The position numbers were made by a program, and so were the translations under genes. A stretch of 63,441 bases of DNA, the filler included, from Klebsormidium nitens (Eukaryota > Plantae > Klebsormidiophyceae), in assembly GCA_000708835.1 (NCBI GenBank). It is 6 parts of 6 records of this genome, joined end to end, with 100 filler letters (N's around TTAATTAATTAA, not from the genome) between each part and the next. Parts side by side here need not be neighbours in the genome. Positions count along the whole stretch, not along the records: positions 52,573 to 59,478 come from DF238421.1; 5 more parts are not named here. One strand, 5' to 3'. The notes beneath the pieces are model-generated. The model searched no databases. It saw only the letters and a list, made by a program, of their open reading frames with translations, and was not told the DNA's origin. Positions 26,571 through 59,578 of this stretch are shown one piece after another. The number at the start of each line of letters is the position of its first letter. Position 1 is the stretch's first letter.

Positions 26571-27338
26571 NNNNNNNNNNNNNNNNNNNNNNNNNNNNNN
26601 NNNNNNNNNNNNNNNNNNNNNNNNNNNNNNNNNNNNNNNNNNNNNNNNNNNNNNNNNNNNNNNNNNNNNNNNNNNNNNNNNNNNNNNNNNNNNNNNNNNN
26701 NNNNNNNNNNNNNNNNNNNNNNNNNNNNNNNNNNNNNNNNNNNNNNNNNNNNNNNNNNNNNNNNNNNNNNNNNNNNNNNNNNNNNNNNNNNNNNNNNNNN
26801 NNNNNNNNNNNNNNNNNNNNNNNNNNNNNNNNNNNNNNNNNNNNNNNNNNNNNNNNNNNNNNNNNNNNNNNNNNNNNNNNNNNNNNNNNNNNNNNNNNNN
26901 NNNNNNNNNNNNNNNNNNNNNNNNNNNNNNNNNNNNNNNNNNNNNNNNNNNNNNNNNNNNNNNNNNNNNNNNNNNNNNNNNNNNNNNNNNNNNNNNNNNN
27001 NNNNNNNNNNNNNNNNNNNNNNNNNNNNNNNNNNNNNNNNNNNNNNNNNNNNNNNNNNNNNNNNNNNNNNNNNNNNNNNNNNNNNNNNNNNNNNNNNNNN
27101 NNNNNNNNNNNNNNNNNNNNNNNNNNNNNNNNNNNNNNNNNNNNNNNNNNNNNNNNNNNNNNNNNNNNNNNNNNNNNNNNNNNNNNNNNNNNNNNNNNNN
27201 NNNNNNNNNNNNNNNNNNNNNNNNNNNNNNNNNNNNNNNNNNNNNNNNNNNNNNNNNNNNNNNNNNNNNNNNNNNNNNNNNNNNNNNNNNNNNNNNNNNN
27301 NNNNNNNNNNNNNNNNNNNNNNNNNNNNNNNNNNNNNN
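26571..27338. other. Assembly gap; other gaps at 28195-28295, 52473-52572, 54429-55031, 56291-57086, 59479-59578, 60640-60739, 62096-62195
   Basis: Runs of N. The ~100-nt gaps contain an artificial TTAATTAATTAA spacer. Confidence 0.97.
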
Positions 27339-30260: not shown

Positions 30261-31139
30261 GACGCGGGTTGCACCGCTTTTCCCCCAGTACGAAGTGGCA
30301 GTATTTCGAAAGCACTCCTACAATATGATCATTCTGCCCTAAGCAACGGAACCAATGGCAGTGACGTCAACTTCCTAATATTATCCTGTCTTGGCTGAGC
30401 GGGCCAATTGAGCCAATCAGAGATCATTCGTTAATGTTAAATTCTGTCATGGGTTCTTGGGATGCACAATATCACCGCTTCTCAAAGGTTTCTAGGTTTT
30501 GTGATCATGAAGTGGAGGCCCTAGTTGATTAGTGCAGGTACAAGCAAGTGTCTGCCACATCAGCCTCGCAAAAGTGGGATGGTCTTCTAGCAATCGTTAA
30601 TTACGTTGAAAGTCGAAGACCCGTCGAAGAGACTCCACCTCCTGCACCTCGACCGACTTTCAGTAATCATCGCTGCGTGCATATATTTCGCTATAAGACT
30701 GGCCGGGCTGATGGCGCCACCATATGCACACATGTTGCAGGTGCCCTTCCGTCAGCTGCACAAGCGAAGGACCCGGACTGGCAGGGCCACCGTGAATGGA
30801 TTGCACATGTGTGTGCGATGCAGTTCGAATATTGGCGTCAGCCTGGACATATGGACAGTTGAAGACTGGTGAGAATGCTCGCGCCGCGAGCGCCTGGAGC
30901 CCCGCGGCCGCGCCGAAAGCGGCCGTGCGGTCAGAAGTTTGCCCGTCAGGGTTTCGGGTTTTGGCCCACGGCGCAACAGTTACTTTGGGAGAAGAAGCAG
31001 CAAAGTTTCGAAAAGCGCTGGCCGTCTCATTGCACTATACAGCAAGTATTACAGCAAGTGCAATGGTGCCTGCCAGGTGAAGGCGGTATAGCAACGCCCC
31101 TGCCTTTGCTCTGACGTTTGTAGAGGTGGTTTGACAGCG

Positions 31140-34100
31140 ATGGCGTCCGCTGTACAGTCGTCCCTGACGCAGCGGTGGCAAACCTTTGCACCTCGCGGAT
31201 CCGCGCAGACACAGCATCTTCGGGCGAGCTCTAACCTTGCATGCATACGTGCAATCAGCACCCCGGCAGTTTCACCCCGCAAATGCAGATCCCTAGCCTC
31301 TGCTTTCAGAGGGCTCACATCCCCCATCCCCTCTAGTCTTGCATTCAACCCCCTGCGGCGGGAGGAGCTGATTCATCAAAAGAAATCTGTTCTGAAGAGG
31401 GGGCTAGTGAAGGCAGCAGCTGCAGCTGAGCTCGAAGCAAAGGCCACCCCCCCAGCGTGGGAGGGCGCCGCAATCCTCCCTTCATTTATCTCCATTGCGC
31501 TTGGCTTAGCGGTGTGGAAGGCGCCCAAGCCCGCCGCCATTTCGCAGCAAGCGTGGCAGCTTCTCGCCATTTTCCTCTCCACCATTACCGGCCTAGTCCT
31601 CAGCCCTCTCCCCGTAGGAGCCTGGGCCTTCCTTGGGTTAACAGTGACCGTTCTCACCAAAACCCTAACCTTCCAGGCAGCATTCAGTGCGTTCACCAAC
31701 GATGTGATCTGGCTCATCGTGATCTCGTTCTTCTTTGCGCGCGGCTTCGTGAAAACAGGGTTAGGAGACCGAGTTGCCACCTACTTTGTGAAGTGGTTAG
31801 GGAAGAGCACGTTGGGATTAAGTTACGGGTTAACTGTGGCTGAAGCGTTGATTGCACCCGCAATGCCGAGCACCACCGCTAGGGCAGGAGGCGTGTTTTT
31901 GCCAATCATTAAGTCGCTGTCACTGGCCGGTGGAAGCAAGCCGGAGGATGGGACGCAGAAGAAGCTGGGGGCGTATCTTATTCAGAATCAGTTCCAGGTC
32001 AGTTGATGGACACTGCTGTTGATGGATCTATTCCTGCATTGGCTTTGTTGTGGAGCTTTTCAGAAGCATCCATATCTCACAGGCCCCTTCAAATGCTATG
32101 ATCTAAGATCTGTGCGTATAGGAAAGACCGGGTCTCTGAGAGCTGTAAAACTCTGACGGCATCAGGGAGTGGCAGCATTAAGGTTTCGGATGGTGGCTGG
32201 TGAGATTAGGGTTTTGGCGAGTTGCCAATTTTGGAGGCGTTCAGATTGGTTAAGAAGTGTCTTTGTCACATATTTGTCAATTCTGAGAACCGGTACTGAG
32301 TGCGCTCCTTCTCACCGCTGCTAGTTGCCTGCCATGGTGGCCAGCAAATTAATGCATCAATCAAGAAGGATCTTGATTTGCAATCAAGCATCAACTTGAA
32401 GGCCCCGCTTTCCCTCCACTTCAGAGGGGGGTTCGCTTCTTGAGCCCCCTGTTCCTTATGATGGCCAATTCCTCAGTTTCCTCCTGGACTTGTTGAAAGA
32501 AGGGGAAAAGAGCAGTTTTGAGTACACATCATTGACCTACTATAGACGCTTTGTTTCCGCAGGCTGCTGGCAACTCGAGTGCGCTCTTCCTGACCGCTGC
32601 CGCCCAGAACCTGCTGTGCATAAAGCTTGCGGGAGAACTCGGCGTGAAGGTCCCCGGCCCATGGCTCACCTGGTTCAAGGTCGCCAGCGTGCCCGCTCTA
32701 GTTGCGCTCCTCACGGGGCCCCTGATCCTGTACAAAATCTTCCCCCCTGAAAGCAAGAACACGCCCGAGGCGCCTGGAATTGCCACAAAGCGGCTAGAGG
32801 TAAGAGATTGGGGAAGTGTGATTTATCGGCGGTGCAATGGAGGGGGCTGCTGAGGTGGGGCTGCTGAGGTGGGGCTGCTGAGATTCTGGAAGGCCTTCAG
32901 AGTGCTGAGTCTCTAGGTGAACGGAAATAGAGCATTCTGAGAGAGCGCAGATTGCTTGCATATGGAGTCCTAGCAGTATCTGTTGGACATATGTTGGCAT
33001 CCCTGCTCGCGCACTTCAGAAATTACAGGCAATGACGCTCCCCTGGCAGGGTCATCTCCAACAAGCAGACATTGATTGGTCTGGACGCTCATGTGCACCG
33101 CTGTCTGCTTGAATCAAATTGACACTCAGCAAGATGATCTTCAAGTGACTCTCTGTTGATAGCCTTCAATCAATTACAATACGCTCAACCCTTCTCCATT
33201 GATCTCCTGCCCACTCATGTGGCTCCAAGGACCCGCCCGACACTTGAAGACATCACTGCCCGACACTTGATGACGTCACTCCTGCAGGCGACCGGCCCAT
33301 GTCGAAGAACAAGTGGGATGTAGTGGGCACTAGCCTGCTGGCAGTCTTGCCGTGGAATCTTGTCGAAATTCTACACATCTCCAACCCAAATTGAAACCCA
33401 GATCGAAGGCGTCAAGTTACAGAGCGCCGAACTGCAGAGTTCTTCTTGCAGGCAATGGGTCCTGTGACGAAGAACGAGTGGGTGATGCTCGGCTCTCGGC
33501 AGTCTTCTTGCCATCGTTTTTGGTTGGCAAAGCTAGCATCAACAACCGAGTAGGAGATGCGGAAGCTTATGATGACCTCAAACTGCGGATTTTTCTTGCA
33601 GGCAATGGGTCCTGTGACGAAGAATGAGTGGGTTATGATCGGCACGATGCTTCTGGCGGTGACGCTGTGGATCTTCGGAGAGCAACTAGGCGTGGCGAGC
33701 GTTGTTGCTGCCATGCTGGGCCTGTGCGTGCTGCTCGTGTTTGGGGTGCTCAAGTGGGACGACTGCCTCACTGAGAAATCTGCGTGGGATACGCTCCTGT
33801 GGTTCGCCGTGCTGGTGAGTGCCTCCAGCACTTCCTAAATTGTTCAAGTCATTGAACTTTTGGAGATGAGTCGTTGAGCCTGAAAATGGAAGAGCAAGAC
33901 GAGGACGACTGCCTCACCGAGAAGAACGCTTGGGATATGCTCCTTTGGTTTGCTGTACTGGTAAACTTCTTCTTTACCACTTCGAACGCCAAGGACTTTT
34001 CGGACCCCCGAATAAGGGCGCTGACACCCTCGCAATCAGAGTCAGCGCCTCCAGGAAGATTGCACTTAGAGAGGCTCTGGAACTTAGGCGAACGGTCTCT

Positions 34101-36736
34101 GGATCCGTCGTTGTTCTAGACCCAGTTTGAGTCGCGAACACCGATTGCGTCACCAAAGGATTCCGGCCTGGGATGCACTTCTCGGCTTTTCCGTCCTCGT
34201 GAAACTCTTTCTTTGACCCCAATTCGCTACGATGTGAAAAACCCTTCGACAGTGAGCCGCAAAATTTCGATAGAAAAGCAGGACCCTGCCTCAACGAGAC
34301 CTCAATCTGTAGAACGTTGCTCGAAACTGCACTTCTCGGAGGAGCGACCCAAAGAGGTTCACAATCCCACTTCCTCGATGCATATAGAAGCATCTGATTT
34401 GTCGGAAAAGGAACTGCCTCTTTGTAAAGATCGCCAACTTCCCCCGGAGCATATTTATTTCTTTCGTAAGGTTCAAATTTGAAGACCGTCGAACGTGGGA
34501 ACTCGAACCTTAAGACCGTCGAATGTGAGTTTCGACGAAGTAAAAGTTGTAAGCGTGATCTGTGGAAGACAAGGACTGGAGCTTGAAGAGTCTTAAACAA
34601 GGGGCGAGACTGGCCGAGAATGCAGGTTTTGTCTACAGTCGTATGCTATTCGGGCCGACCTCTCTCAGTTTCTTTGAAAAGGTAATAACATGTCTGTAGT
34701 GTCGTTGATGTTATACCACGAATGTGTGCGAGAATCCACAATGCGAGAGTTTGAACCCAGTCTGGAGCTTTAAGGCTTAGGACACTATCGAAACCGCCAG
34801 AGCAAGGCAAGCCTTCTGCCATCCTCAAGAAGACGAAATGAAAGCACAGACCATCCATCTGCAACTAACTATGTTCACCAATCCGAAAGGACCTCCGTAC
34901 GCTCCATCGCATGTTTGAATATTCCAAGCGCATGCTCCTTTGACTTCAGCGAGATGGCGCCACGCACCTCGGCATTCGCGTCCGTTTTCTCTCCCTTCGA
35001 CAGGTGCAATCTGACACGGCCCGGTGTTTCAACGCAGGTGGGCATGTCGGGTCAGCTCAACAACCTCGGCCTGGTCAAGTATATGTCCGACTCCGTAGCA
35101 CAGACGCTCGCCAACGCCAGATTGAGCTGGCAGGCCTCCTTCGGTTTGCTCCAGGTAAGCTTCACCCTTTGCCCCTTTTTGAACATCGCCTCTCTCCTAT
35201 GTTCCATCCCCGTCGACGAAGATCAACTAGAATCCGTTGAGCGATCCGCCTTTCGCTGCCTCTAGCTTTGGTAAGAATCGCCTCTTTCAATATCTTTGAC
35301 TACTATTGACCTCGTCTGCCCTACTTAGATTCGAGGACCTGAGGTTGAGCCTTGCGCGGCTTTTGGAAGAAGCCCTCGTGGCAGGAAAGAACTTTTGAAT
35401 GTCAAATCAGATTCATCGAAGGCCCTGTATGAACCTTGCCGGGATGAAAGCATGTGTTTCACAGCGGAGATGGGGAGTCAGTCTGAAAACACCATTAATA
35501 GGTTCGAAAGTTTCCTCAGCCCACGCTGTTACGTGCCGAACCTGCGTGCGCAGAAACTTCGTTCAATCGAAGCCCGTTCGCTCCGACTGCGTCCTGAAAC
35601 TTCAGAATCCCTTCATTTCTTCGTAACCATATTCTGTACTAACCACGCTTTACAGGTCGTCTACTTCACGGTGCACTACCTGTTCGCCAGCCAAACCGCC
35701 CACGTGGGTGCGCTCTACTCCGCCTTCCTGGCCATGAACCTCGCCGCGGGCGTGCCCCCCCTCCTCGCCGTGCTCGCGCTGGGTTACAGCACCAACCTCT
35801 TCGGGGCGCTCACGCACTACAGCAGCGGGCAGGCCGCCGTCTACTTCGGAGGTAGGCTTTCTTGGTTCTTTCTTGTCCGTAGGAATGCGTGGCTCCGGGC
35901 TTCAATTTCGGGTCGTACATTTGGAAATAGGTTGCTTCGTTCGGGGCAGCAACGCACCACAGCAGCGGGCAGGCCGCCGTTGCTTTTGAAGGTGATATTC
36001 TGGCGTCTTTTACGATTTGAAGAAGCGTTGCATTGGCGTCTGTGAACAGGTCTTGCTGCCTTGGAATTGGGTTGCTTTGTTGGGGCGATCATGTATTACA
36101 GCGAGCAGACCGCCATTTACCATGGTAGTGCGGGGTTCTTCTTGTTCTTTTGAGTATCGGAGGTTGTCGGGTTTACTTGCGTGCTGTACGTGAGAACGCC
36201 ACGCGGCCATTCTTACTGGCCAGTACAGAGTGCAAAGATATCGGATGGACCAGAACGGCTGTCGAGTACATGCTTGTCGAGAAAAACGAGGATGGGCAGG
36301 AAAGCGTGAAGATGTAGTGGGCGCGCTTCTTTAGACGGCTCGCTTTTGACGTTCACTCGTCCATCGTACATCCTTTGGTCGAGAGGCTTGTCAAAGTTAC
36401 GACTCTTGGGGACCATACACGAAGAGGTCTTGTGCACAACCTCTGGCAAGAGCGGCTTCTTGGTGCGGTTAGAAATCCTGAGGGGTTCTTCTGTAGAGGC
36501 TCTTTGCCTACTCATCCTCGGTAAACCTGCCTGTCGGCCCTTCACTTCCCACTCCTTTTCGACCAGCCACCTTGCTCAGGATTCGGTTGCTCATGTCATC
36601 CCTCCGTCACTCCTCTGCAGCTGGATATACGACTCTGCCCGAGACCTTCAAGCTGGGTTTCATCATGGCGATCTGGAACGCTCTGGTTTGGACTGTTGTG
36701 GGTGGGGTGTGGTGGAAGTTCCTGGGACTGTACTAG
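31140..36736 (+). CDS. DiT2: Plastid dicarboxylate (glutamate/malate) translocator, DASS family (578 aa, 6 exons)
   Basis: Exons 31140-31997, 32563-32799, 33602-33814, 35038-35154, 35656-35851, 36621-36736 (1737 nt, all GT-AG, phases fit). Ser/Ala-rich transit peptide. DiT2-type rather than DiT1-type motifs: GLVLSPLPVGAWAF, GLGDRVATYFVKWLGKSTLGLSYG, APAMPSTTARAGG, GNSSALFLTAAAQN, LTHYSSGQAAVY, WWKFLGLY. Confidence 0.95.
33288..33500 (+). repeat. Two intronic echo copies of DiT2 exon-3 acceptor plus exon start
   Basis: TTCTTGCAG|GCAATGGGTCCTGTGACGAAGAA repeated with exon-like start at 33452 (about 49/53 identical to the real junction at 33602); older copy CTGCAG|GCGACCGGCCCATGTCGAAGAACAAGTGG at 33288. 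Confidence 0.9.
33901..33966 (+). repeat. Intronic echo of DiT2 exon-3 end plus donor
   Basis: Encodes DDCLTEKNAWDMLLWFAVL|GTAAAC versus the real DDCLTEKSAWDTLLWFAVL|GTGAGT, 146 bp upstream. Confidence 0.9.
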
Positions 36737-38125: not shown

Positions 38126-41100
38126 TCACAATATTTTCTTCCCGCCAACACTAATCCGCCGTCGAAAAGGCCAGAGCTTCTTGACCATCAAAATTAGCCA
38201 CCGCAAGATCCGCTGTATCCACGACCCTCGCTCCTCCTCCGGCTGTGGCTTGAACATCTCTTTGTACATCTTCTTCTGCTTCTCGCTCACCGCCTTTTCA
38301 TTCTCAACCGCTATTCTAAGCTCCCGAGCGATTTCTTTATCTCCTGGAGCAAGTTTCAGAGCTCGTTTAAAGTCGTTGATTGCATCTTCGCTCTGGCCGA
38401 GCGCCACTTTGGCTCGCGCCCGCCGGAAGAGCGCCTTCACGTTTTTCTGGTCGTCCGCCAAAACCTGCGTGGACATGCAGCCAATGAGCAACCATGTGCG
38501 CACTCGTCGTCCGGAAGTATCGAAATAATCTTTTCTCATTCGAATCTTTAGAGCGCCCCTTACTTTCTTTACGTCTTTCTGCTAATAGTAGAAAGCCCGT
38601 TGATTCTGCTTGCGAAAGACTGCGCTTTGACAGGCTTTTTCAACCTGAAATGAAAAGCCTTTGAGCCAACCGCAGGTGTACGTGTTTGCAACTGCTGACA
38701 GGGAGCCTCATCTCACGATTCTACCACGTTCGCATGAACGCATTGTCATAGTTCGTATCGTAGAACGTAGCCGCCTGACTAAGCGTCGAAGCGGAGGTCA
38801 CAAAAGTCGAAGACCTCGATAAGTGTGAGAGGATAAATACGGCTCGAAGCCCCTCATCTCAGTGACTCAGCTTGATTCCGTCCTCTGAAAAGCCGGACAA
38901 AGACGTCACGATCAGTGCAAAAACTCTGAAGTGGTCAGAGACTGGCCGACAGCATAATATACTTCGGTTCGGAGCAACCGTCTGGACAACTTTCCGGACA
39001 CCGTGGCTCCTATCTGCGTACGGACCAATCGACCTTGGACAAGTTCCATTGCCGAGCCCCACTTCGAGATCTTAGACCGCCTCAGATTACAAGCAGAAAA
39101 GCGAAAAACGAAAGGAGCACGCAGACGACGCCACCTTCATTTCAACGGGGAAAACGGGTGTTAATGCAAACAATGAAACTTACCGCGTTACAGTTCGCGA
39201 TTGCCTCGTTATACCGCTTCAGCCTGAGCATGCATGCCGCGATGTTGAGCAGGCAGGGTATCCGCACGGCGTCTGCGTCTTCGCGGTAGCGCCCCTCCAG
39301 CTGAAACATGAAGTCGTCCCCCATGAACGTCAGCCCCTGCGTCAAAACGACACACAGCGTGACGTCAGTCTCGTGGGCACGTGCTCGTTGCTTTTTGAGA
39401 TTCGCGCTTTTCTTCTGTTGATGCTAAGACTCTCCACTTGTCATTGTTGTATCGTCCTGGCGGCGGCAGTCGACAGGGTCGGTTTTGCGCCTCGATCGAT
39501 CCGCTCGACTACTTTTCTTGTTTTTGCACTCCCATGAAAACCGCACAGCAGCCCTTTGAGTTACGCCATCCGGCCCATATCCAGCCACTGGAAGCTACGG
39601 CGACCTGTAATGATTGCGTTTCGGACGACAGCGGTCAATGACATTTGAAGCGGAGGAAAGAGAAGCGCCAACGCCCGTTCGAATTGCGTAACCGTATGAC
39701 GAGTCTGACCTGGTTCGCCTCACACCGGTCAAAAATATCAAAGTTATAGATTTCTCGAGTACCTTTTTGACAGAAGTAGATGGTAGTCGACCCTATCCTC
39801 GGAAGGGCGAGCAATGTGCTGCTAATGCTGATTGCAAAGGGAGGATTGAAGACAAGCTTCGCCACTTGGAAAGGGGTGGAGGCGCTTCTCGCGGTCAGAA
39901 CAGACGCGTCCCGAGATGGTCGAAGAATGGGTGGACGTTACCAATAAGTGTTTCAATCCATCCGAGCTTCCATAAAGTGCTTGAAGATCGTCTTGTGTCG
40001 AGAACACGCAGACGGACTCAGCAAAACCGGACAGGCAATTCACAAAATCCACAGATTAGTTATGAAGAGCGACCTTTTCGTCGCACAGCATTTTCAAGGT
40101 AAGTCTCTTGCCGAACCTTTCTTCACCGACTCGGAGCGCTTTTCGGAGAAGCGAATCGGCATTCAGCAGAATCCACAAAATGATTGGGCAAGCGACCCTC
40201 GCACAGCCTTCTTCGAGTACGTCCGAAAATACTTCGTGCTGCTTCCTGGGAAAGCGGAACAGTCACGTCAACAGGAAACACGAGTGGCTTAAGCGACCCT
40301 CACGCAGCCTTTGCCAAATTCTTCTCGTGCTGGCCGGTCTCACCATTTCGTACTGCTTAAGTGCTTCCTCTGTTTGCCCCCCCTTGAAGAGGTCGTTCCC
40401 GTCCACCCGTCGTCGGTCCGCCGCCGCAATGCGCTCTTCCACGGTCATCTCGGACCGTGGTCGGCCCTGTAACAAATTCCTCAAGGTTGAGCAGCCAAAA
40501 AATCAAAGCGTGAGGATGGTGGTTCGGCTCACCAGATTGATGAAACGTGGACACGAACAGTCGTCAAACGTCAGTGGAAGGTTGCGACCGTGAGGGGTCA
40601 AGGAGTGAAACGTGTTTGCAGTTCACCGGGGCTGAAAAACCAGATTCAAAGGAACACGGGATGCCTACAAATACTTGACAGCGATGAGAGCAGGGGCGGA
40701 GGATTGTACGGCCTAGTCATAATACAAGACGGGATAGAGGACACTGATCATCGCGTCCCTTATACTGGCTTGAAAAGACCATATGCAGAAGTTAGAACGT
40801 TTCTTCTCAACGAAAAGACCACAAGCTTCATCAAAGACCGACCTCGTTTGCTGGCTCGAACCCTTTCAACTCCACTTCGTATAGGAGGTCTGCCTTTGGG
40901 GGTACGGTCGGGAAAGAGAAGCAGCCCTCCTTTCCGTACCCTTGCTGCCATGCCACGTGCACCAGGCTCTTCTCCCCCGCTTGCATGCTCGTGAGCGCCA
41001 GCCCCAACCCCTTCAAACCTTGCTGCTCTGGATAATGATGAAGAATTGGTCATTGGGAGGGTGGAATCTTGGGGTTACGTATTTAGGAGAAGCGTTATGG

Positions 41101-42759: not shown

Positions 42760-43076
42760 TGTGAGCGCAACCAATGGAGCCCCTTAAAAGGCCTCTGGAA
42801 CGAAAGCTGGCTGACCCGATGACCGCCCTTCCCTTCCCAAATGTGTGACTTTTCACAATTTTGTGGCAACTCTGGAAGCAATGCGCCAATATTGCCAATG
42901 GCGGCGACGCGCGCTTCTGCCCGCGAGCAGGCTAGGGTGGACAGCGTGCCGACTAGCGGAAGGACGGAACGCTGACGAACGGAACGGCCGGAACGCTGTT
43001 TCTTCACTTTCTTCAGATTTAGTAGGTAAGCAAGCACAATTTTAATATTTTAATCCTCCGCCAAAGGAACGACCCA
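42760..43076. promoter_or_regulatory. Likely bidirectional promoter between TWD1 and the CreA-like gene
   Basis: 317 bp between two divergent ATGs; CCAAT motifs near 42886, 42896 and 43074. Confidence 0.5.
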
Positions 43077-44024
43077 ATGGCGTCCTCTGCTTGCTGTGCC
43101 GCAGGCCTGGGCTTCCTCGCATCTGCATTGAACAACTTACATTGCACGACAGAGCCCCAATGCCACCAGATTCGAGGCAGCGGCGACGCTTCCACATCGT
43201 ACTCTAGATGCGCGCTTGGCGCACCGGGCCATGCTAAACTCCCTCTGAAAGCATTGAGAGGTCTGCAAAGGGTTGGCTTGCAAGGAACACCGGGGGTTGC
43301 AATGAAGGGCAGGAAAAGTGCTTGCAGCACTTATCTGATGCATGCAGCGGCACAGTCTAAGACTTCGGCATTGGAATCTTTGAGGGCAGAAACCCCTGCT
43401 CCAAAGGACACAGAACCATGGGCAACGGAAGAAAGTAGACTGGACGAAAGTGCAGAATCCGATGGCCCTGCTGGCACCAGTAGATGGATCGCTCGGGCGC
43501 TGTCAATTGTTGCAGGCGCCTTGCTTGCGCTGCAAGGGCCTCAGATGGCATTAGCGGGCGTGCAGAAGGTTGGCGAGTTCACCGGCAGTGGGTTCATCTT
43601 CAAGGACTCCATCGAAGTGATGTCAATCGACGACCCCAAGGTCTCAGGAGTCACTATCTTTGTGTCGGACTTCCAACGATCATTGACTGACCGCCTATCG
43701 AAGGACTTCTTCAATGAGCCAAGCCAAGCCTCGATTACGTGTGCGCAGACCAGCCCCCTCAGAATTGTTGGGAAGATCGCTGGGAAGGAGGGTGAGGAGA
43801 TCTTCCAAGAGACCAAGAACTTCCTGGCGTTCAAGACGCTTCATGTGAGGAGGATCTTTGACGAGAAGAAGAATGCGCTGGTGTACGTTGCTTACAGCAC
43901 GCGCTTTCAATCAGACAATGACAAGGTGTCTGCTGGACGCTATCGGACGTCCATTTGCACAGTCCCACTCTTTAACGCAGTTGTACAGAATGATGCTGGA
44001 GCGCCAGGGGATGGGTCAGGATGA
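43077..44024 (+). CDS. CreA-family protein with putative bipartite plastid/thylakoid-lumen targeting peptide (315 aa, intronless)
   Basis: The C-terminal half (KDSIEVMSIDDPKVSGVTIFVS...EPSQASITCAQT...GEEIFQE...FKTLHVRRIFDEKKNALVYVAYS...RTSICTVPL) fits my recollection of bacterial CreA. The N-terminus is Ser/Ala-rich, followed by a hydrophobic stretch ending ALA. Confidence 0.75.
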   Translation: MASSACCAAGLGFLASALNNLHCTTEPQCHQIRGSGDASTSYSRCALGAPGHAKLPLKALRGLQRVGLQGTPGVAMKGRKSACSTYLMHAAAQSKTSALESLRAETPAPKDTEPWATEESRLDESAESDGPAGTSRWIARALSIVAGALLALQGPQMALAGVQKVGEFTGSGFIFKDSIEVMSIDDPKVSGVTIFVSDFQRSLTDRLSKDFFNEPSQASITCAQTSPLRIVGKIAGKEGEEIFQETKNFLAFKTLHVRRIFDEKKNALVYVAYSTRFQSDNDKVSAGRYRTSICTVPLFNAVVQNDAGAPGDGSG

Positions 44025-45557: not shown

Positions 45558-51323
<5,766 letters not shown>

Positions 51324-52576
51324 TGCTTCACCCTGGTCATGACAAGACAGGCTTTGTTCAGGATGCGGTGTTGGCTTTGAGGGCTAGGTATCTAGATTCC
51401 AACAGCGACAGGAGTTGGAATTGTCCAAGAGGGAGGAAACCGAGAAGAAAGCGACGGTGGATGTTCTAAGAGGCTGGACAAACGCAACGCAGCTGAGGCA
51501 AAAGGGCACCCTAGTGGAGCCAACTACATCCACAGTGTCGATGATAAGGTGGTGAGCCTCATGCAGGAATCAGAGAGGAAACTGACGGCGATGAGCACAA
51601 CCCTGGAAAGACCCCAATCATAAAAGGCACTTGCAAATACTATACCCTTTGCATGGATTTCCCCATGCCATAAAACATTGGGGGTTCTCCTGCCATGTCC
51701 TCTTGAAGACACAATATGTTATGAAACGAATGTCAAGCGTTCCTTACCTTGGATTCCCTCCTGTTCTCCCTCCTCTTCTGCAGCCTCATCAACCGCTGCC
51801 CCAGTTCATCACTGCATGATCAAGTTCATCTTAAGTCACCATAGTGACCAAGAGACTCGCTGTCATGCTTACACTGCACAGAGTGCTGATCCTAGAAGTT
51901 CACATACTCGCTTTCAAAGCCACGACAAGAGAGTTCAAGTCCGGACCTTCACAACTGTCGTTGAGCTACATAGGGGACAGCAAATCCTTGTAGCAGATCA
52001 AATGCCGACAGCAAGCGATTGACATTGATTCTGGACCCTTGATGCGCTTTGCTTGAGGAGCTGTCAAGGGCCCCACTTACCTGAGGTCCACTCTAGTGAA
52101 GAAGCAAGGGGCCGCTGGCGCGCTCCTCTCTTCCATTGGCATTGGCTCAAAACACGAGTGCCAAACCTTCAGCACTCCGTTTGCATTTGCGCCAGACGCA
52201 TGAATCACCTTGGTAGCACCAGCAGCATTGACCAGCAAGTAAGCGCTGGTGGCGGTCAGGATCTCCAAGGGTGCCCCAATTGCTCCAAAAACAGCGCTAC
52301 CAACTGCTCTCTTACCAGAGCTTTGCACAGCACCAGACCTGTTGGGCGATGTTGGTATGTGTGGATCAGGGTGCCTTGTCTGTGCTCCAAATTCAGAACT
52401 TTTAGGGCTGCGCCTGGCTGCGCCACCTCTCTCAATCCGCCCCGACTCGTGTGACTTGGCTTCTAGCCTCTANNNNNNNNNNNNNNNNNNNNNNNNNNNN
52501 NNNNNNNNNNNNNNNNTTAATTAATTAANNNNNNNNNNNNNNNNNNNNNNNNNNNNNNNNNNNNNNNNNNNNGACC

Positions 52577-53515
52577 TTGGTCATAGTCCACAAGGAGGTG
52601 CTGCTGACTCAGTGGGAGGAGCGCATCAACACCTTTGCCCCAAGGGCGAGAATTGGCCGGATTCAGGGGTCTACAGTCATCACGGATGGCTGCCATTTCG
52701 TCATAGGAATGTTGCAGTCGCTGAGTATGAGAGGCTATAATAGAGCAATTCTTGACGAGTTTGATCTGGTGGTTGTCGACGAGTGTCACCATGTTGCCGC
52801 CAAGGTCTTCAGCAGAGCTTTGCGCTGCCTGTGCACTCCCTACCGCCTCGGTCTCAGTGCTTATGTTGACAGAAAGGACGGCCTGACGGACGTTATCAAG
52901 TGGCACTTGGGAGACGTCTGCTTCCTGGTCGAGCGGAAGGGCGACTCCGGCCTGACCGTTGAGACCATCCGTTACGAGCAGCCTGCTTACAAGGAGCCCG
53001 CCCCATTATTCAGGAATGGGCAGCTCGCGCTCTGTAAGATGATCGACGTGCTCTGCAATGACCCGCGCCGGAACAAGCTGATTGTCAACATGGTGCGCGA
53101 GCTCGCGCAGAGTGGGCGGTGCATATTGGTCCTGTCCGACCGGAGGGACCACTGCAGTGCGTTGCAGAAGGCGTTGGTAGAAAAGGGCCTCGCCGCAGGG
53201 CTCTTCTTGGGCGGTACGCGTAGGGAGAGCCTAGACGCCGTTGCAGAGAGCTCACAGGTCATAATAGGGACATATGCAATAGCTTCAGAGGGCTTAGACA
53301 TTCCCCGCTTAAACACACTCGTCATGGCGACGCCCAAGAGCGATATCCGCCAGACCGTTGGGCGCATCACAAGGGGAAGCAGTTCAGCAAGCAACCCCTT
53401 GGTCATAGACATCTGCGACAAGTGGGGCCCTCTGATTGCTCAGGCAAGGAAGAGAGACGCCTTCTATCGGTCGTCCGGTTTCGCAAGAAACGTGCAGAGT
53501 GATCGCGGTGTGTGA
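52577..53515 (+). CDS. Superfamily II helicase, NCLDV A18-like; 5' part lost in gap
   Basis: Intronless. VIVHKEVLLTQWEERI, IGMLQSLSMR, VVVDECHHV (motif II), GLSAY...RKDGL (III), ASEGLDIPRLNTL (V), QTVGRITR (VI), PLVIDICD...RKRDAFY. Walker A is not visible. Confidence 0.8.
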   Translation: MVIVHKEVLLTQWEERINTFAPRARIGRIQGSTVITDGCHFVIGMLQSLSMRGYNRAILDEFDLVVVDECHHVAAKVFSRALRCLCTPYRLGLSAYVDRKDGLTDVIKWHLGDVCFLVERKGDSGLTVETIRYEQPAYKEPAPLFRNGQLALCKMIDVLCNDPRRNKLIVNMVRELAQSGRCILVLSDRRDHCSALQKALVEKGLAAGLFLGGTRRESLDAVAESSQVIIGTYAIASEGLDIPRLNTLVMATPKSDIRQTVGRITRGSSSASNPLVIDICDKWGPLIAQARKRDAFYRSSGFARNVQSDRGV

Positions 53516-53801
53516 TAGAGGGTGCGGAGGGCGGCCGCGCGCGGGGTTTTGTACCGGGGTTTTCCGGACGTCGGACGCTCAGGGACATCGTTGTCGCAAT
53601 CCGCGTCAGAAGGGCTAACAATGATTGAGCTGAAAAATGACAGGACAAGATGGAGCAGAGTGCATGAACAGATGGCCTCATGGTGAACAAACTGAGCAGG
53701 GCTCCATTGTACGACAAGAGGGCAGTTTTAGGTGGCCTCATGGCACAAGGGATCGAAGAAAAAAGGGTAAGGGGGGAAGAACTGCCAATCTTTAGAGCGC
53801 G

Positions 53802-54128
53802 ATGGCGGTCCAGGGTTTCAAAAGTGACAAAGCAAGCCAACGGAAGGAAAGCACTGCAGTGCAGAATGTATGCAAGTTTCTTCAGGATGTCAGATTGAAA
53901 TCAGAAGAGGAAGAAGAAGTTGCAAGGCGTGGCCTGGATAACATGCTTTTCTGCTGTCAGCGTCCAGAACAGATAAAGCAAAAAGATTACGAGGCGGTAT
54001 CCTTGTACATGGAAGGGCAGCAGAGGCAGGCAATGGGCGCGTTTCGGGAGGCGCAGTATTACTTCGACTCTGCTCTTGAGAAGATTTGCGAGTGCTATTC
54101 GATGATGGAGCAAAGGCATCGGCTTTAG
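53802..54128 (+). CDS. Hypothetical helical protein
   Basis: 108-aa ORF in the virus-like block; no recognisable motif. Confidence 0.25.
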   Translation: MAVQGFKSDKASQRKESTAVQNVCKFLQDVRLKSEEEEEVARRGLDNMLFCCQRPEQIKQKDYEAVSLYMEGQQRQAMGAFREAQYYFDSALEKICECYSMMEQRHRL

Positions 54129-54272
54129 CGAGGTGCAAAATGGTGTTGACTCAGCACAGGCATGCAGTGACAGAGATTATAAGTAGGAGAGTCAATCTGC
54201 CACAGACACCGTAAATAAGGATGGTTGTACCAAGTTTAGTACAGAGTAAGATAAGCTCGCAAACGCCCGCAG

Positions 54273-55345
54273 TCAAACCTTATGCTTATTACAATTGTCT
54301 TTGCTGGACTGGCCGCTTGTTTTTATCAACTGTGTTTTGTCGTTGGCCCCTGCTTTACTTGCTTCTTTGCCTTGCACTTGGACCCAATTGCTGCTGCGAC
54401 CCCGGCCGCCCCCCTGCAATGGGAGACANNNNNNNNNNNNNNNNNNNNNNNNNNNNNNNNNNNNNNNNNNNNNNNNNNNNNNNNNNNNNNNNNNNNNNNN
54501 NNNNNNNNNNNNNNNNNNNNNNNNNNNNNNNNNNNNNNNNNNNNNNNNNNNNNNNNNNNNNNNNNNNNNNNNNNNNNNNNNNNNNNNNNNNNNNNNNNNN
54601 NNNNNNNNNNNNNNNNNNNNNNNNNNNNNNNNNNNNNNNNNNNNNNNNNNNNNNNNNNNNNNNNNNNNNNNNNNNNNNNNNNNNNNNNNNNNNNNNNNNN
54701 NNNNNNNNNNNNNNNNNNNNNNNNNNNNNNNNNNNNNNNNNNNNNNNNNNNNNNNNNNNNNNNNNNNNNNNNNNNNNNNNNNNNNNNNNNNNNNNNNNNN
54801 NNNNNNNNNNNNNNNNNNNNNNNNNNNNNNNNNNNNNNNNNNNNNNNNNNNNNNNNNNNNNNNNNNNNNNNNNNNNNNNNNNNNNNNNNNNNNNNNNNNN
54901 NNNNNNNNNNNNNNNNNNNNNNNNNNNNNNNNNNNNNNNNNNNNNNNNNNNNNNNNNNNNNNNNNNNNNNNNNNNNNNNNNNNNNNNNNNNNNNNNNNNN
55001 NNNNNNNNNNNNNNNNNNNNNNNNNNNNNNNAGCCGGTATTTCGCAGGGCCACCCTGTTTGGTGCATTGGTTGCAGATGCAGATTTTCGGGTCAAAGGGC
55101 CAGGGCAGGGCAAGCGCCTCTCCACAGCCATGGCAACGCTTCCGCTTGTTTCCAGCAATGCTTGCAGCCATGCCTCGGGTGCGTGCCTGTCCCCTGACAA
55201 AATCCCCTCTGCAGAAGGCTTCATGCCGGAGAGACCAGAATTCTTTGCAGTATGCTCTGTGTTCCTTGGAGAGCATCCCGACATAGAGCATGACAGAGGG
55301 GTCGCTTGCAGACAAGGGCTCCAGGATGTCCAGGAGAACCCCCAT
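54273..55345 (-). CDS. Hypothetical protein with CxxC...CxxC zinc finger (XPA-like spacing), interrupted by a gap
   Basis: ATG 55345; KRKRCHGCGEALALPWPFDPKICICNQC. Continuity across the gap 54429-55031 cannot be verified. Confidence 0.4.
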
Positions 55346-55543
55346 GGCTAGCTGGTGAGTGGTTTAAAGTCTGAAGCATTTCTTCCTGCATTCTTTGTCA
55401 ATCTGCCAAGCCAATCGCGCCATTCCGTGCCAACTCAGGGCCACCCTCCTGCCAGTCCACCGCCATTTATCGCCACGCTGCCTTTGATACTTGAGTCTGT
55501 CCTGTCCGATGGTTCAGGCATTCCCATTCAATCTGCTTTCACC

Positions 55544-58500
55544 ATGGAGGTTGTCAAGCGCAACGGTCTTCGTGAGCCAGTCTCCTTTGACAAGATCAGC
55601 CAGCGCCTTTCGAATTTGTGCAAGAACGTGCATCAGCCGTATGCTGAGGGCAAGGCTTATGGGCATTGGAGGCGTTCAAGGCGGGTGAAGGACATGTCTC
55701 TGCAGGTCACTGGTGGACCGCTCCTCAACGCAGATCCCGTCAAGATCGTTCAGAGGGTCAGTGTGTCGATTTATGACGGAGTGTCCACCGAGGAGATTGA
55801 CGTTCTGACCGCAGAGGTTGCAGAGACCCTGAAGACCTCCCATCCAGAGTATGGGATTCTGGCTGCGCGCATCGTGATCTCTAACCTGCACAAGAGCACC
55901 CCTGCAACCCTGCGCGGGTCGGTGGAGCTTCTCGGCCCTGGCCGCTGGGACGAGGCGCTGTACGAGCGCATCACAAAGGACGACGCGCTCTGTGATGCCC
56001 TGGAGGGAGCGATAGACCACGCCAGGTCCTATGGGCTCGACTACTTTGGGGCCAAGACCATGATCAAGGGCTACTTGCTGTGCAAGGAAGGGCGGCCTGC
56101 CGAGCGCCCCCAGTACATGTGGATGCGGGTCGCGCTGCACCTGCACGGGCCCGACAGGCTGGACCGCGTCCTGGAGACCTACGAGCTGCTGTCCTGCGGC
56201 TACTTCACGCATGCATCGCCGACCCTCTTCAACGCTGGCACGTGCCACCCCCAGGACAGGTATGGTATCTTTCTTGTACAGATAGAACCCNNNNNNNNNN
56301 NNNNNNNNNNNNNNNNNNNNNNNNNNNNNNNNNNNNNNNNNNNNNNNNNNNNNNNNNNNNNNNNNNNNNNNNNNNNNNNNNNNNNNNNNNNNNNNNNNNN
56401 NNNNNNNNNNNNNNNNNNNNNNNNNNNNNNNNNNNNNNNNNNNNNNNNNNNNNNNNNNNNNNNNNNNNNNNNNNNNNNNNNNNNNNNNNNNNNNNNNNNN
56501 NNNNNNNNNNNNNNNNNNNNNNNNNNNNNNNNNNNNNNNNNNNNNNNNNNNNNNNNNNNNNNNNNNNNNNNNNNNNNNNNNNNNNNNNNNNNNNNNNNNN
56601 NNNNNNNNNNNNNNNNNNNNNNNNNNNNNNNNNNNNNNNNNNNNNNNNNNNNNNNNNNNNNNNNNNNNNNNNNNNNNNNNNNNNNNNNNNNNNNNNNNNN
56701 NNNNNNNNNNNNNNNNNNNNNNNNNNNNNNNNNNNNNNNNNNNNNNNNNNNNNNNNNNNNNNNNNNNNNNNNNNNNNNNNNNNNNNNNNNNNNNNNNNNN
56801 NNNNNNNNNNNNNNNNNNNNNNNNNNNNNNNNNNNNNNNNNNNNNNNNNNNNNNNNNNNNNNNNNNNNNNNNNNNNNNNNNNNNNNNNNNNNNNNNNNNN
56901 NNNNNNNNNNNNNNNNNNNNNNNNNNNNNNNNNNNNNNNNNNNNNNNNNNNNNNNNNNNNNNNNNNNNNNNNNNNNNNNNNNNNNNNNNNNNNNNNNNNN
57001 NNNNNNNNNNNNNNNNNNNNNNNNNNNNNNNNNNNNNNNNNNNNNNNNNNNNNNNNNNNNNNNNNNNNNNNNNNNNNNNNNNNNNNACATCTTCAGGAAC
57101 AACGTCTGTCATCAGACTGCTGTTGCTTTGCCATGGTTCAACAAAGTCCATTCGGCCAACCTCTTCCGGAAGGACAAGTCTGTGTTGAACAAGACTCTCG
57201 CGCAACTTTGCCACTGTTAGCGCCCCTGCAGCTAAAGGATAGAGTATGACATGCTTAACACCTTCAGGAAGTGCAATTGTGATGTGGCGGTGCGTTGTGC
57301 ATACCAGAGGTGTTGCTGCAGCCTCTAAAGGTGCTTTAAACCCGCTGTCTGGTCTGATGCCATAGGCGTGCAGCCATGATTCAAGTTCAGTTGCGGGCAT
57401 TCTGACCCCCTTCGTGTGCAGGAAGAGGTCAGAGATCTGGCCAACTGTGAAGCCGACGTTCTGTTGCACCTTTTTGAAATGCTCACGAAGCCAGCATACA
57501 CCTCGCTTGGTACCGTCCATGGCTTTGAGAGGCATATCTACAAATACAAGGGTATTGTTCGGCTGAACAATACGCATTCCCCGCCTTCTCCTCTGCAGTA
57601 GCTGCTTCCTCTACGGCATGGGAGACGACCAGGACTCGATCGAGGGCATCTTTGACACGCTCAAAAAGTGTGCCCTGATCAGCAAGTGGGGTGGGGGCCT
57701 GGGCATACACGTCCACTCGATCCGCTCCAACGGAGCGGACATCAGGGGCACCGCAGGGAAGGCCACCGGCATCGTGCCCATGCTGCGCAACTTTGACGCC
57801 CTGGCCCGCTACGTCAACCAGGTTCGCCTCACTCTTTGAGATTCTGATATTGCCAAGAGTAAAGGATGGGTGTCGATCTCCGCCTCCGCCTGCACCGCTT
57901 CAGGTGTCTGCCCTTCTTGCACCACCTCTCGCTGGAGGCCAAGAGCCGTGATGGCCGGGAGACGGTTGTTATGGAGCATTTCCCCGAGCTTGACCCCGCG
58001 AATACGGACCCCCGTGTGCTGTCGCTTGTTGGTGTCAAGTTATTGAGCGATCCAAACCCCGAATTTGAGATCGTCTTCGAGGCTCACCCCGACCATACAA
58101 TCGAGACGCTTGCGCGCTTTTCGAGAAGCCGGCCCAGAAGATACTTCCTGTTCGTAAACGACTGCAGGACCCACAGCTTTGCAGTAATCAAGCACGCAAT
58201 GATGCCGCCCCCTGACATCGAGCCGATCAGGCGGGCAAGACCATCGTTGCAAGTGAAAGACGGTGTTGATTTCTGGAGGTTTGGACATTAAAGTTCTGTC
58301 TCTGCAGGGCGGCAAGCGCAAGGGATCAATTGCCATCTACTTGGAGCCCTGGCATGCGGACGTCTTTGACTTCCTGGAGCTGCGCAAGAACAGCGGGAAT
58401 GAGGAGATGCGGTGCCGCGACCTGTTTACGGCTCTGTGGGTGCCCGACCTATTCATCAGGCGCGTCGAGCAGGACGGGGTGTGGACCCTTTTTGACCCCG

Positions 58501-59478
58501 ACAAGGCCAGGGGCCTGTCCTATTGCTACGGAGAGGCCTTTGACGAGCTGTACGAGAGGTACGAGGCCACGCCCGGGCTTGCAAGCCGCGTGGTCCGCGC
58601 CAAGGCTGTCTGGAGCGCCATGCTGACCGCCCAGGTGGAGGGCGGCACGCCCTACGTGCTCTACAAGGACGCCGTCAACCGCAAGAGCAACCAGAAGCAC
58701 CTGGGGACCATCAAGAGCTCGAACCTCTGTGCTGGTAAGTGTTAGGCTTCGGGTGTCTGGGGTAGTGAGTCGGATGAGGCATCGTGAAAGACGGGAGATT
58801 CTACATCAAAGTGGGCCTTGGCACTGTCTTGCATGCAGGACAGCTTCGCTGCCAGCTTGTCCGGTTGAGTGAGGAACCTTTCCTTCTTCCTTTGCCTTGC
58901 GACAATGCAGCAGGCTGCTATCGCAGCGGCCAGTATCAGGTTGAGGGCCACGACTGCCAACTCGACCAAGAGAGCAAGCTCTCTCTCCATACAGAGATCA
59001 CGGAGTTTACCGCCAAGGATGAGGTGGCGGTCTGCTCCCTGGCCTCCCTTGCGCTGCCCCAGTTTGTCACCCTGGACTCGGACAACAAGCCGTTCTTTGA
59101 CATGAAGATGCTGCGCGAGGTCACCAAGGTGGCGATCCGCAACCTGGACCTGGTCGTGGACCGCACCTTCTACCCCGTGCCGGAGGCCCGCCGCTCCAAC
59201 ATGCTGCATCGCCCCCTCGGGCTGGGAGTCCAGGGCTTGGCGGACGTTTTTATGATGCTGCGCATGCCCTTCAGCTCGCCCGCGGCGAGGGCGCTCAACC
59301 GGGGCATCTTCCAGAGCATCTACTTTGCCGCTGTCGAGGCCTCGGTGGACCTCGCGGCTGAGCTGGGGCCTTACCCGAGCTTCCAGGGCTCCCCCGCCTC
59401 CCAAGGTTTCCTTCAGTTTGACCTGTGGGGCGTCAAGCCGTCCGAGATGGGCTACGACTGGGCCGGCCTCAAGGCGCG
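55544..59478 (+). CDS. RNR1: Ribonucleotide reductase class Ia large subunit, NCLDV-like, intron-containing, 3' end lost in gap
   Basis: Exons 55544-56259 (possible 78-nt in-frame intron 55628-55705), 57599-57821, 58308-58734, 58995->59478, phases 2,0,1 fit. ATP cone [82 protein letters not shown] and EEMRCRDLF resemble viral rather than plant RNR1, as I recall the families. Confidence 0.9.
57087..57577 (-). CDS. Hypothetical ORF nested antisense in RNR intron 56260-57598, running into a gap
   Basis: At least 163 open codons from ATG 57577 ([18 protein letters not shown]...), starting 21 nt from the RNR acceptor. Confidence 0.4.
57866..58291 (+). CDS. ORF nested in RNR intron 57822-58307; possible permuted papain-like (PPPDE/LRAT-type) peptidase
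   Basis: 141 aa filling 426 of 486 intron nt; His in FLHHLSLE precedes [12 protein letters not shown] (candidate catalytic Cys). Confidence 0.45.
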
Positions 59479-59578
59479 NNNNNNNNNNNNNNNNNNNNNN
59501 NNNNNNNNNNNNNNNNNNNNNNTTAATTAATTAANNNNNNNNNNNNNNNNNNNNNNNNNNNNNNNNNNNNNNNNNNNN

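Follow-up and report, generated by a model that had tools for sequence, protein, structure and literature searches.

Candidate spliceosomal introns carrying small genes at the intein sites of a viral-type ribonucleotide reductase gene in the Klebsormidium nitens assembly

From mirusviruses, more than 2,000 genes are reported that lie inside spliceosomal introns, mostly of virion genes; these introns include the endonuclease-bearing shintrons and the non-nuclease MING-1 family (PMC12768974). Conserved sites are reported to be preferred by inteins as well as by group I introns, but not by spliceosomal introns; the target sites of the endonucleases span 12-40 bp, and collaborative homing can move group I introns that have no endonuclease (PMC2814812). 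An algal endogenous giant virus is reported with five inteinic LAGLIDADG genes, located in polymerase genes (10.1101/2024.09.03.611062), and punuivirus is reported to have introns in 61 genes, 176 bp long on average; its main text, apart from the intron tables, contains no mention of "nested", "homing" or "ribonucleotide reductase" (10.64898/2026.10.09.758095). The stretch analysed here (the window) contains 63,441 nucleotides (nt) of the Klebsormidium nitens assembly GCA_000708835.1, in six parts joined end to end, and one of them, positions 52,573 to 59,478 (DF238421.1), contains a viral-type R1 gene of ribonucleotide reductase (RNR). This gene shows three inserts with exact spliceosomal ends, and related sequences are precisely without them. 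Each insert contains an open reading frame (ORF), here called cargo: cargo 1 and cargo 2 are conserved genes found at the same sites in relatives, and cargo 3 is likely a gene. The three inserts lie at most 7 nt from three positions at which the RNRs of large DNA viruses carry inteins, a coincidence absent from the initial annotation of this DNA and new in this analysis. Coordinates are given in Table 1.

The three cargo introns and a likely fourth intron of the RNR gene show a GT donor, a pyrimidine tract and a YAG acceptor, and the three cargo introns have the GT...pyrimidine-CAG ends first assigned to them. Their excision gives a stop-free RNR of 590 amino acids, across whose joined exons the Pfam barrel profile runs unbroken. 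A 1339-nt contig of run X9, with exons about 90% alike, is without the three cargo introns to the base, and a contig of run X10 is without intron 1 at the same exact boundaries; X9 is classed as RNA by the guess of the tool only, and the kind of X10 is not established. Among the variant rows compared (the best 40 of 510 and the best 40 of 93), the exon variants of X9 are common to X7 in 25 of the 28 listed cases and to X6 in 25 of 25. X6 contigs span the exon-intron borders at sites 2 and 3, with intron 3 about 89% alike, X7 carries pieces of cargo 1, and its DNA contains the 78-nt segment of the fourth intron; since both runs bear introns, the shared variants fit a spliced transcript of an intron-bearing lineage. 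Intron sequences are kept at 84-91% in other runs. The sequence comparison thus suggests that the three cargo introns are likely spliced out by the host spliceosome.

The run of 796 N at 56291-57086, whose closure had been proposed, is crossed by a contig of run X1, the likely source sample, and consists there of 82 bases, so that intron 1 is 625 nt long and not 1339 nt as first given. The gap is thus overstated about tenfold, and the other long N-runs, 54429-55031 and 26571-27338, may be as well; a further difference between the X1 contig and the window is located at 55693. The fourth intron, first noted as a possible 78-nt in-frame intron, is likely a plain one: with it the ATP cone shows a spacing of 57 residues and without it 31, against 25-31 in all 43 viral RNRs in which this was scored (43 of 152 loci). 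No contig that skips this segment was seen. Introns 1 and 3 show a loose branch-point pattern 32-35 nt before the acceptor; intron 2 and the 78-nt segment show no such pattern.

Rfam shows no group I or group II core over 55400-59480; there are two chance rows (E 9-10), and the 82 nt of intron 1 are unread. Identity of the inserts with inteins was rejected: their phases are 2, 0 and 1, they contain in-frame stops or a frameshift, and they show no Cys start. Signs of introners were sought as a second copy in the window and as terminal repeats inside the intron ends, and neither was found. In X1, a paralog without intron 1 has a site-2 insert of similar length, and another viral-type RNR copy has a diverged site-3 insert; the X1 contigs that match the window at 55400-59478 include several such copies, in which sites 1-3 are filled or empty in different combinations. 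The inserts are thus present in some related RNR copies and absent from others. Taken together, it is highly probable that the three introns and the genes of cargo 1 and cargo 2 are real.

Cargo 1 is antisense to the RNR gene and begins at 57577, 21 nt from the acceptor, as in the first reading, which gave at least 163 amino acids. Only 3 of 2000 dinucleotide shuffles match the length of the ORF. An X7 loose end, read by hand, extends the frame ten codons into the gap, like the tails of P0018 and P0019; the stop would fall within the 82 unread bases, giving a protein of 164-190 amino acids. A full HMMER scan of 1.84 billion representatives gave four relatives (66, 42, 43 and 35%), and a word search over lengths of 89-286 amino acids gave none. 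The head of one relative, P0017, is the antisense of the acceptor and the following RNR exon; its frame therefore extends into the RNR exon, and the cargo 1 site is common to that relative. The structural model has a mean pLDDT confidence of 74.9, and residues 19-96 are predicted to form an RFX-type winged helix, with RFX5 at Z 7.0 and a root mean square deviation (rmsd) of 3.2 over 75 aligned residues, a score that common arrangements also reach. For the C-terminal part the fold search gave only weak beta-grasp-like rows, and the best Atlas value, 0.78, is a lead only.

Cargo 2 is the 141-amino-acid sense ORF of the first reading; it occupies 426 of the 486 nt of intron 2 and stops 16 nt before the acceptor. 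Its length is matched by 11 of 2000 dinucleotide shuffles, and ten relatives at 62-79% were found among 29 candidates. The tail of one of these, P0003, reads the RNR exon out of frame, so that the P0003 gene sits in the same intron; the longest contig is 3718 nt for both P0003 and P0017. The initial annotation held that the ORFs would be chance frames if they had no homologs, and two of the three have them. The listed X6 indels in intron 2 (12 of 16) are located in the spacers, at 57827-57853 and 58290, and none from the start codon to the final sense codon. His20 and Cys100 are kept in every covering alignment row, and in 10 of 11 rows the Cys is preceded by Asp. The first reading of one ORF as a permuted papain-like peptidase rests on a His...[D/N]-Cys motif, which we compare with the permuted papain-like (PPPDE / H-NC) motif, a His box followed by Y-x-L-x3-N-C. 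The fold rows are weak (Z 3.2-3.4): the model (pLDDT 64) gave TseH at Z 3.4 and rmsd 6.7 and a deSUMOylase at Z 3.2 and rmsd 7.5, both equalled or exceeded by unrelated rows, and the Atlas lead, IcsB_M, is on 14% of one cluster. A permuted papain-like enzyme is possible for cargo 2, as a lead only from these predictions.

Intron 3 was first described by 70 open codons in frame with the next exon. Such a frame exists in sense (58778-58993, 72 codons), but frames of at least 70 codons occur in 140 of 2000 shuffles, which is chance level, and the antisense ORF of 82 amino acids is the better candidate. This ORF covers 249 of the 260 nt of the intron (96%) from ATG to stop, and 1 of 2000 shuffles reaches such a length. 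Over its 10 nt, a loose end of X6 shows four differences from the window: three are silent third positions in antisense, and all four codons touched change in sense. This comparison, made by hand on a very small sample, favours the antisense frame, which is likely a gene.

The three cargos are mutually unrelated and are located on both strands. Their GC content at third codon positions (GC3) is 0.48-0.69, versus 0.80-0.89 in the RNR exons. The first reading saw no LAGLIDADG or HNH motif in them, and no nuclease match was found for any cargo with the Pfam, NCBIfam and PHROG profiles, which divergent nucleases may escape and which do not reach the up to 27 unread residues of cargo 1, and the fold searches gave no clear-scoring nuclease for cargo 1 or cargo 2. 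A PDB sequence search gave one chance row only. A search for the same cassettes at other places, proposed with the first reading, gave same-site relatives (P0003, P0017 and X6) and no cargo-gene locus in viral contigs, metagenome contigs, prokaryote genomes or phage records; the pattern of an acceptor followed by the site-2 exon was found in none of the viral and metagenome contigs. The same cargo at the same site in these three is target-site specificity, although among close relatives only. Upstream of the cargos, a search allowing up to 2 mismatches gave no punuivirus late-promoter motif. X9 has no coverage of the cargo genes, which is uninformative on their expression. Both antisense cargos begin at the acceptor end (57577-57598 and 58980-58994), cargo 3 with codons that are the polypyrimidine tract in reverse complement, so that any promoter would lie in the downstream RNR exon.

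The three intein positions are, with the bar marking the insertion point, xxSS|C before the first catalytic Cys (site 1), NQ|GG (site 2) and SNL|C (site 3). Intron 1 sits 4 nt upstream of the first (-4), intron 2 exactly at the second (0) and intron 3 7 nt downstream of the third (+7); the cargo-free 78-nt intron is 558 nt from the nearest intein site. In a survey of 152 viral RNR loci, many of them near-duplicates, the share of scored loci with an insert was 4 of 139 for xxSS|C, 18 of 101 for NQ|GG and 20 of 140 for SNL|C. Every one of these inserts is intein-like with a Cys start, and 43 of 45 alignment breaks are located at these three sites. The insert row of L145 at S3 was discarded as pattern mis-pairing, as were the S4 pattern rows. 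At NQ|GG, 14 loci show inteins followed by Gly and interrupted by a stop: L008, L010, L011, L015, L018, L019, L021, L022, L024, L030, L031, L033, L034 and L038. Seven of them have a 296-amino-acid ORF between the intein halves, which in L018 (insert 420-1880) matches DUF7487 (E 9.5e-19), and the other seven resemble the same element after losing this ORF. The chance that three of four introns lie at hotspots is 6e-5 to 3e-4 for three to five hotspots and a 15-nt window, about 1e-4, which is a rough figure with the +/-7 nt window set post hoc and the loci redundant.

The reading that accounts best for these observations, with a probability of roughly 0.45, is that the inserts are host-spliced GT-AG introns with small viral accessory genes, captured at the cuts of intein endonucleases. 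An intein-borne homing endonuclease would cut its RNR target, and repair would take up gene-sized foreign DNA; the repaired allele would survive only if the insert were spliceable, because the site motifs carry catalytic and specificity residues. The insert would disrupt the endonuclease target, and the filled allele would resist cutting. In co-infection, the filled allele could be copied into cut empty alleles by collaborative homing, needing no nuclease of its own, and it would persist, since imprecise loss inside a target of 12-40 bp would not be tolerated. The process would not be driven by the cargo genes, which would ride along as passengers and be transcribed on their own. A wider proposition, put forward tentatively and with the odds against it, is that gene-carrying spliceosomal introns of giant viruses that use the nucleus have a birthplace at the target sites of homing endonucleases, where a captured spliced gene immunises RNR against inteins and spreads via the nuclease of the invader. 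If true, conflict with endonucleases would lead in this way to new spliceosomal introns, and introns in this state would be forerunners of shintrons.

Several points, besides the roughness of the chance estimate, weigh against capture at endonuclease cuts. An endonuclease for the three sites was not found in this virus lineage, and intein-bearing RNRs are distant, the closest uninterrupted viral RNR in IMG/VR being at 55%. Inteins and introns could each gather at invariant motifs independently. The repeats at sites 1 and 2 (3-4 nt, CAG) are normal splice consensus and the repeat at site 3 is 1 nt long; a clear repair scar is thus lacking. Three of the four cargo-1 relatives and nine of the ten cargo-2 relatives are without DNA context, and a free-standing donor gene is shown for neither; cargo 3 has no database relatives in a word search over 45-144 amino acids (0 of 15 candidates). 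X9 and X10 could be intron-less DNA alleles, and the best-supported variant rows favour shared variants.

The alternative that survives best, an unlikely one, is that the introns are self-mobile in the manner of shintrons or MING-1, each cargo protein driving the spread or splicing of its own intron. Each site has its own cargo family, relatives keep it there, and paralogs differ in its presence, as in MING-1, and the predicted winged helix of cargo 1 could bind DNA; against this, none of the three profile sets gives a nuclease match for any cargo, and three unrelated proteins, one of them a small membrane protein, would each have to be a mobility factor. Next comes a filter on persistence, also improbable, in which genes were inserted and intronised in many positions and the inserts at invariant motifs stay since their imprecise loss kills the enzyme, endonucleases being uninvolved. 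Such a filter is raised for inteins, and likewise for group I introns, in PMC2814812, which reports no such bias for spliceosomal introns. Sites 1 and 2 do come after CAG, a natural proto-splice site, but RNR has many conserved motifs, and all three cargo introns are on intein sites while the plain intron is elsewhere. Still less probable is that the inserts are former inteins, some fractured by a nested gene, in which flanking splice sites replaced protein splicing and the cargo was exchanged: intron 2 does match its intein site to the base, and viral site-2 inteins are stop-broken, several with the nested 296-amino-acid ORF, but introns 1 and 3 are offset by -4 and +7 nt and are not in phase 0, and Pfam and inspection of the ends gave no intein-like remnants in the inserts. 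Decay after integration, with host introns or junk entering a dead viral relic and ORFs arising by chance, is very improbable and largely refuted for introns 1 and 2: the introns of endogenous giant viruses were initially taken as erosion (10.64898/2026.10.09.758095) and cargo 3 is without homologs, but there are 10 and 4 protein relatives, the RNR frame is intact, the introns are 84-91% conserved and only 1-11 of 2000 shuffles match the ORFs. The reading as host-spliced introns captured at endonuclease cuts is kept as the working explanation.

The part of the window that contains the RNR gene also shows a superfamily 2 (SF2) helicase, which we take to be A18-like, and an ORF of 108 amino acids without family matches at curated cut-offs. 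The closest viral relative of the helicase (49%) is located in L153, where its neighbours are Pox_A22, DUF5767 and DUF5901 genes, a neighbourhood that we assume to be that of a nucleocytovirus. From these neighbours, a nucleocytovirus origin of 52573-59478 is likely; it may alternatively come from a mirusvirus, the helicase and RNR being the only markers in view. In a tree built from 82 RNR sequences, with duplicates merged and with 54 of the 152 loci omitted because they did not give one long alignment, the window RNR is a long branch beside a phage contig and its placement is uninformative. The viral part is edged by assembly linkers, without a visible junction to host DNA. In run X5, which comes from a different sample and study under the same species label, 30 of 30 bins are covered, which suggests that the viral element is resident in this algal species; along 57089-59478, 175 of the 202 listed X5 changes are C>T or G>A, and X5 is probably a bisulfite library made from the same DNA. 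As far as about 52.4 kb the window contains eukaryote-type genes in exon-sized pieces, which are probably algal. They include a split sodium:sulfate symporter, CreA, a long low-complexity ORF with a WW domain, a piece of an RNA cap methyltransferase and tetratricopeptide repeat (TPR) pieces, listed at 31092-36042 (+), 43026-44021 (+), 48600-50714 (-), 46082-46396 (-), 317-616 and 38129-38581.

Table 1. Features of the viral part of the window (positions along the whole stretch).
Feature	Position	Strand	Remarks
SF2 helicase	52574..53515	+	Pfam ResIII/Helicase_C; 5' end cut by assembly linker; marks 52573-59478 as viral
Orphan ORF, 108 amino acids	53802-54128	+	between helicase and RNR
RNR R1 exon 1	55544..55627	+	start of ATP cone
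Plain intron, likely	55628..55705	+	78 nt, GT-AG, phase 0, in frame, no cargo
RNR R1 exon 2	55706..56259	+	PF03477, PF00317
Cargo intron 1	56260..57598	+	phase 2; true length 625 nt; exactly skipped in X9, X10
Cargo 1 gene	57087..57577	-	163 amino acids readable; predicted RFX-type winged helix and small beta-grasp-like C-terminal part
RNR R1 exon 3	57599..57821	+	PF02867 1-72
Cargo intron 2	57822..58307	+	phase 0; 486 nt; exactly skipped in X9; present in X6
Cargo 2 gene	57866..58291	+	141 amino acids; conserved His20, Asn98-x-Cys100
RNR R1 exon 4	58308..58734	+	PF02867 72-213
Cargo intron 3	58735..58994	+	phase 1, in catalytic Glu codon; 260 nt; exactly skipped in X9
Cargo 3 gene, likely	58742..58990	-	82 amino acids; one N-terminal transmembrane helix, then basic patch; hydropathy 2.72
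RNR R1 exon 5	58995..59478	+	PF02867 213-370; 3' end missing, cut by assembly linker

The origin and placement of new spliceosomal introns are a long-standing question. Such introns reportedly show no preference for conserved sites (PMC2814812), yet the three gene-bearing ones of this locus are all on intein sites. The range of gene-bearing spliceosomal introns widens with this locus from mirusvirus virion genes to the RNR of a likely nucleocytovirus in an alga, and with its empty and filled alleles the locus is a compact test case in which capture, immunity and self-mobility predict differently. For annotation, nested genes of this kind are lost by intron-aware pipelines, and the RNR is broken by prokaryotic callers. 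No description of gene-bearing spliceosomal introns in viral RNR on intein sites was found in the literature covered, which did not extend to the large mirusvirus and punuivirus tables or the 2020 Nature paper on algal endogenous viruses.

The punuivirus-type endogenous giant viruses of algae are reported to share host-type GT-AG introns with pyrimidine-rich 3' ends (10.64898/2026.10.09.758095; PMC9693826), and the plain 78-nt intron fits these. The RNR inteins of large DNA viruses share the three positions, by the catalytic cysteines and loop 2, and some are fractured with a nested ORF; they are removed at the protein level and have a Cys start, whereas the RNR cargo introns show a broken frame or stops and RNA splice sites. 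Shintrons are alike in spliceosomal ends, nested gene and target-site specificity, but are reported to encode HNH, GIY-YIG, VSR or PD-(D/E)XK nucleases, none of which was detected in the RNR cargos (PMC12768974). MING-1 is alike in having a GT-AG intron, a non-nuclease gene, a fixed site in a conserved viral gene and no group I or group II core; as reported, it forms a single family that sits in the terminase genes of mirusvirus orders rich in introns and mostly without RNR (PMC12768974). Here three unrelated cargos are in one RNR R1 gene, on both strands and at intein hotspots, not in the terminase nuclease region, so that they are set apart from MING-1 by location and not by sequence comparison. 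With the more than 2,000 nested mirusvirus genes reported (PMC12768974), the initial proposal of a new kind of cassette does not stand, while that of gene-sized spliced inserts does, through their spliceosomal ends and exact removal in relatives. Nested-gene spliceosomal introns are thus already known, and what is novel here is RNR as the host gene, a likely nucleocytovirus, cargo without detected nucleases and the location on intein sites.

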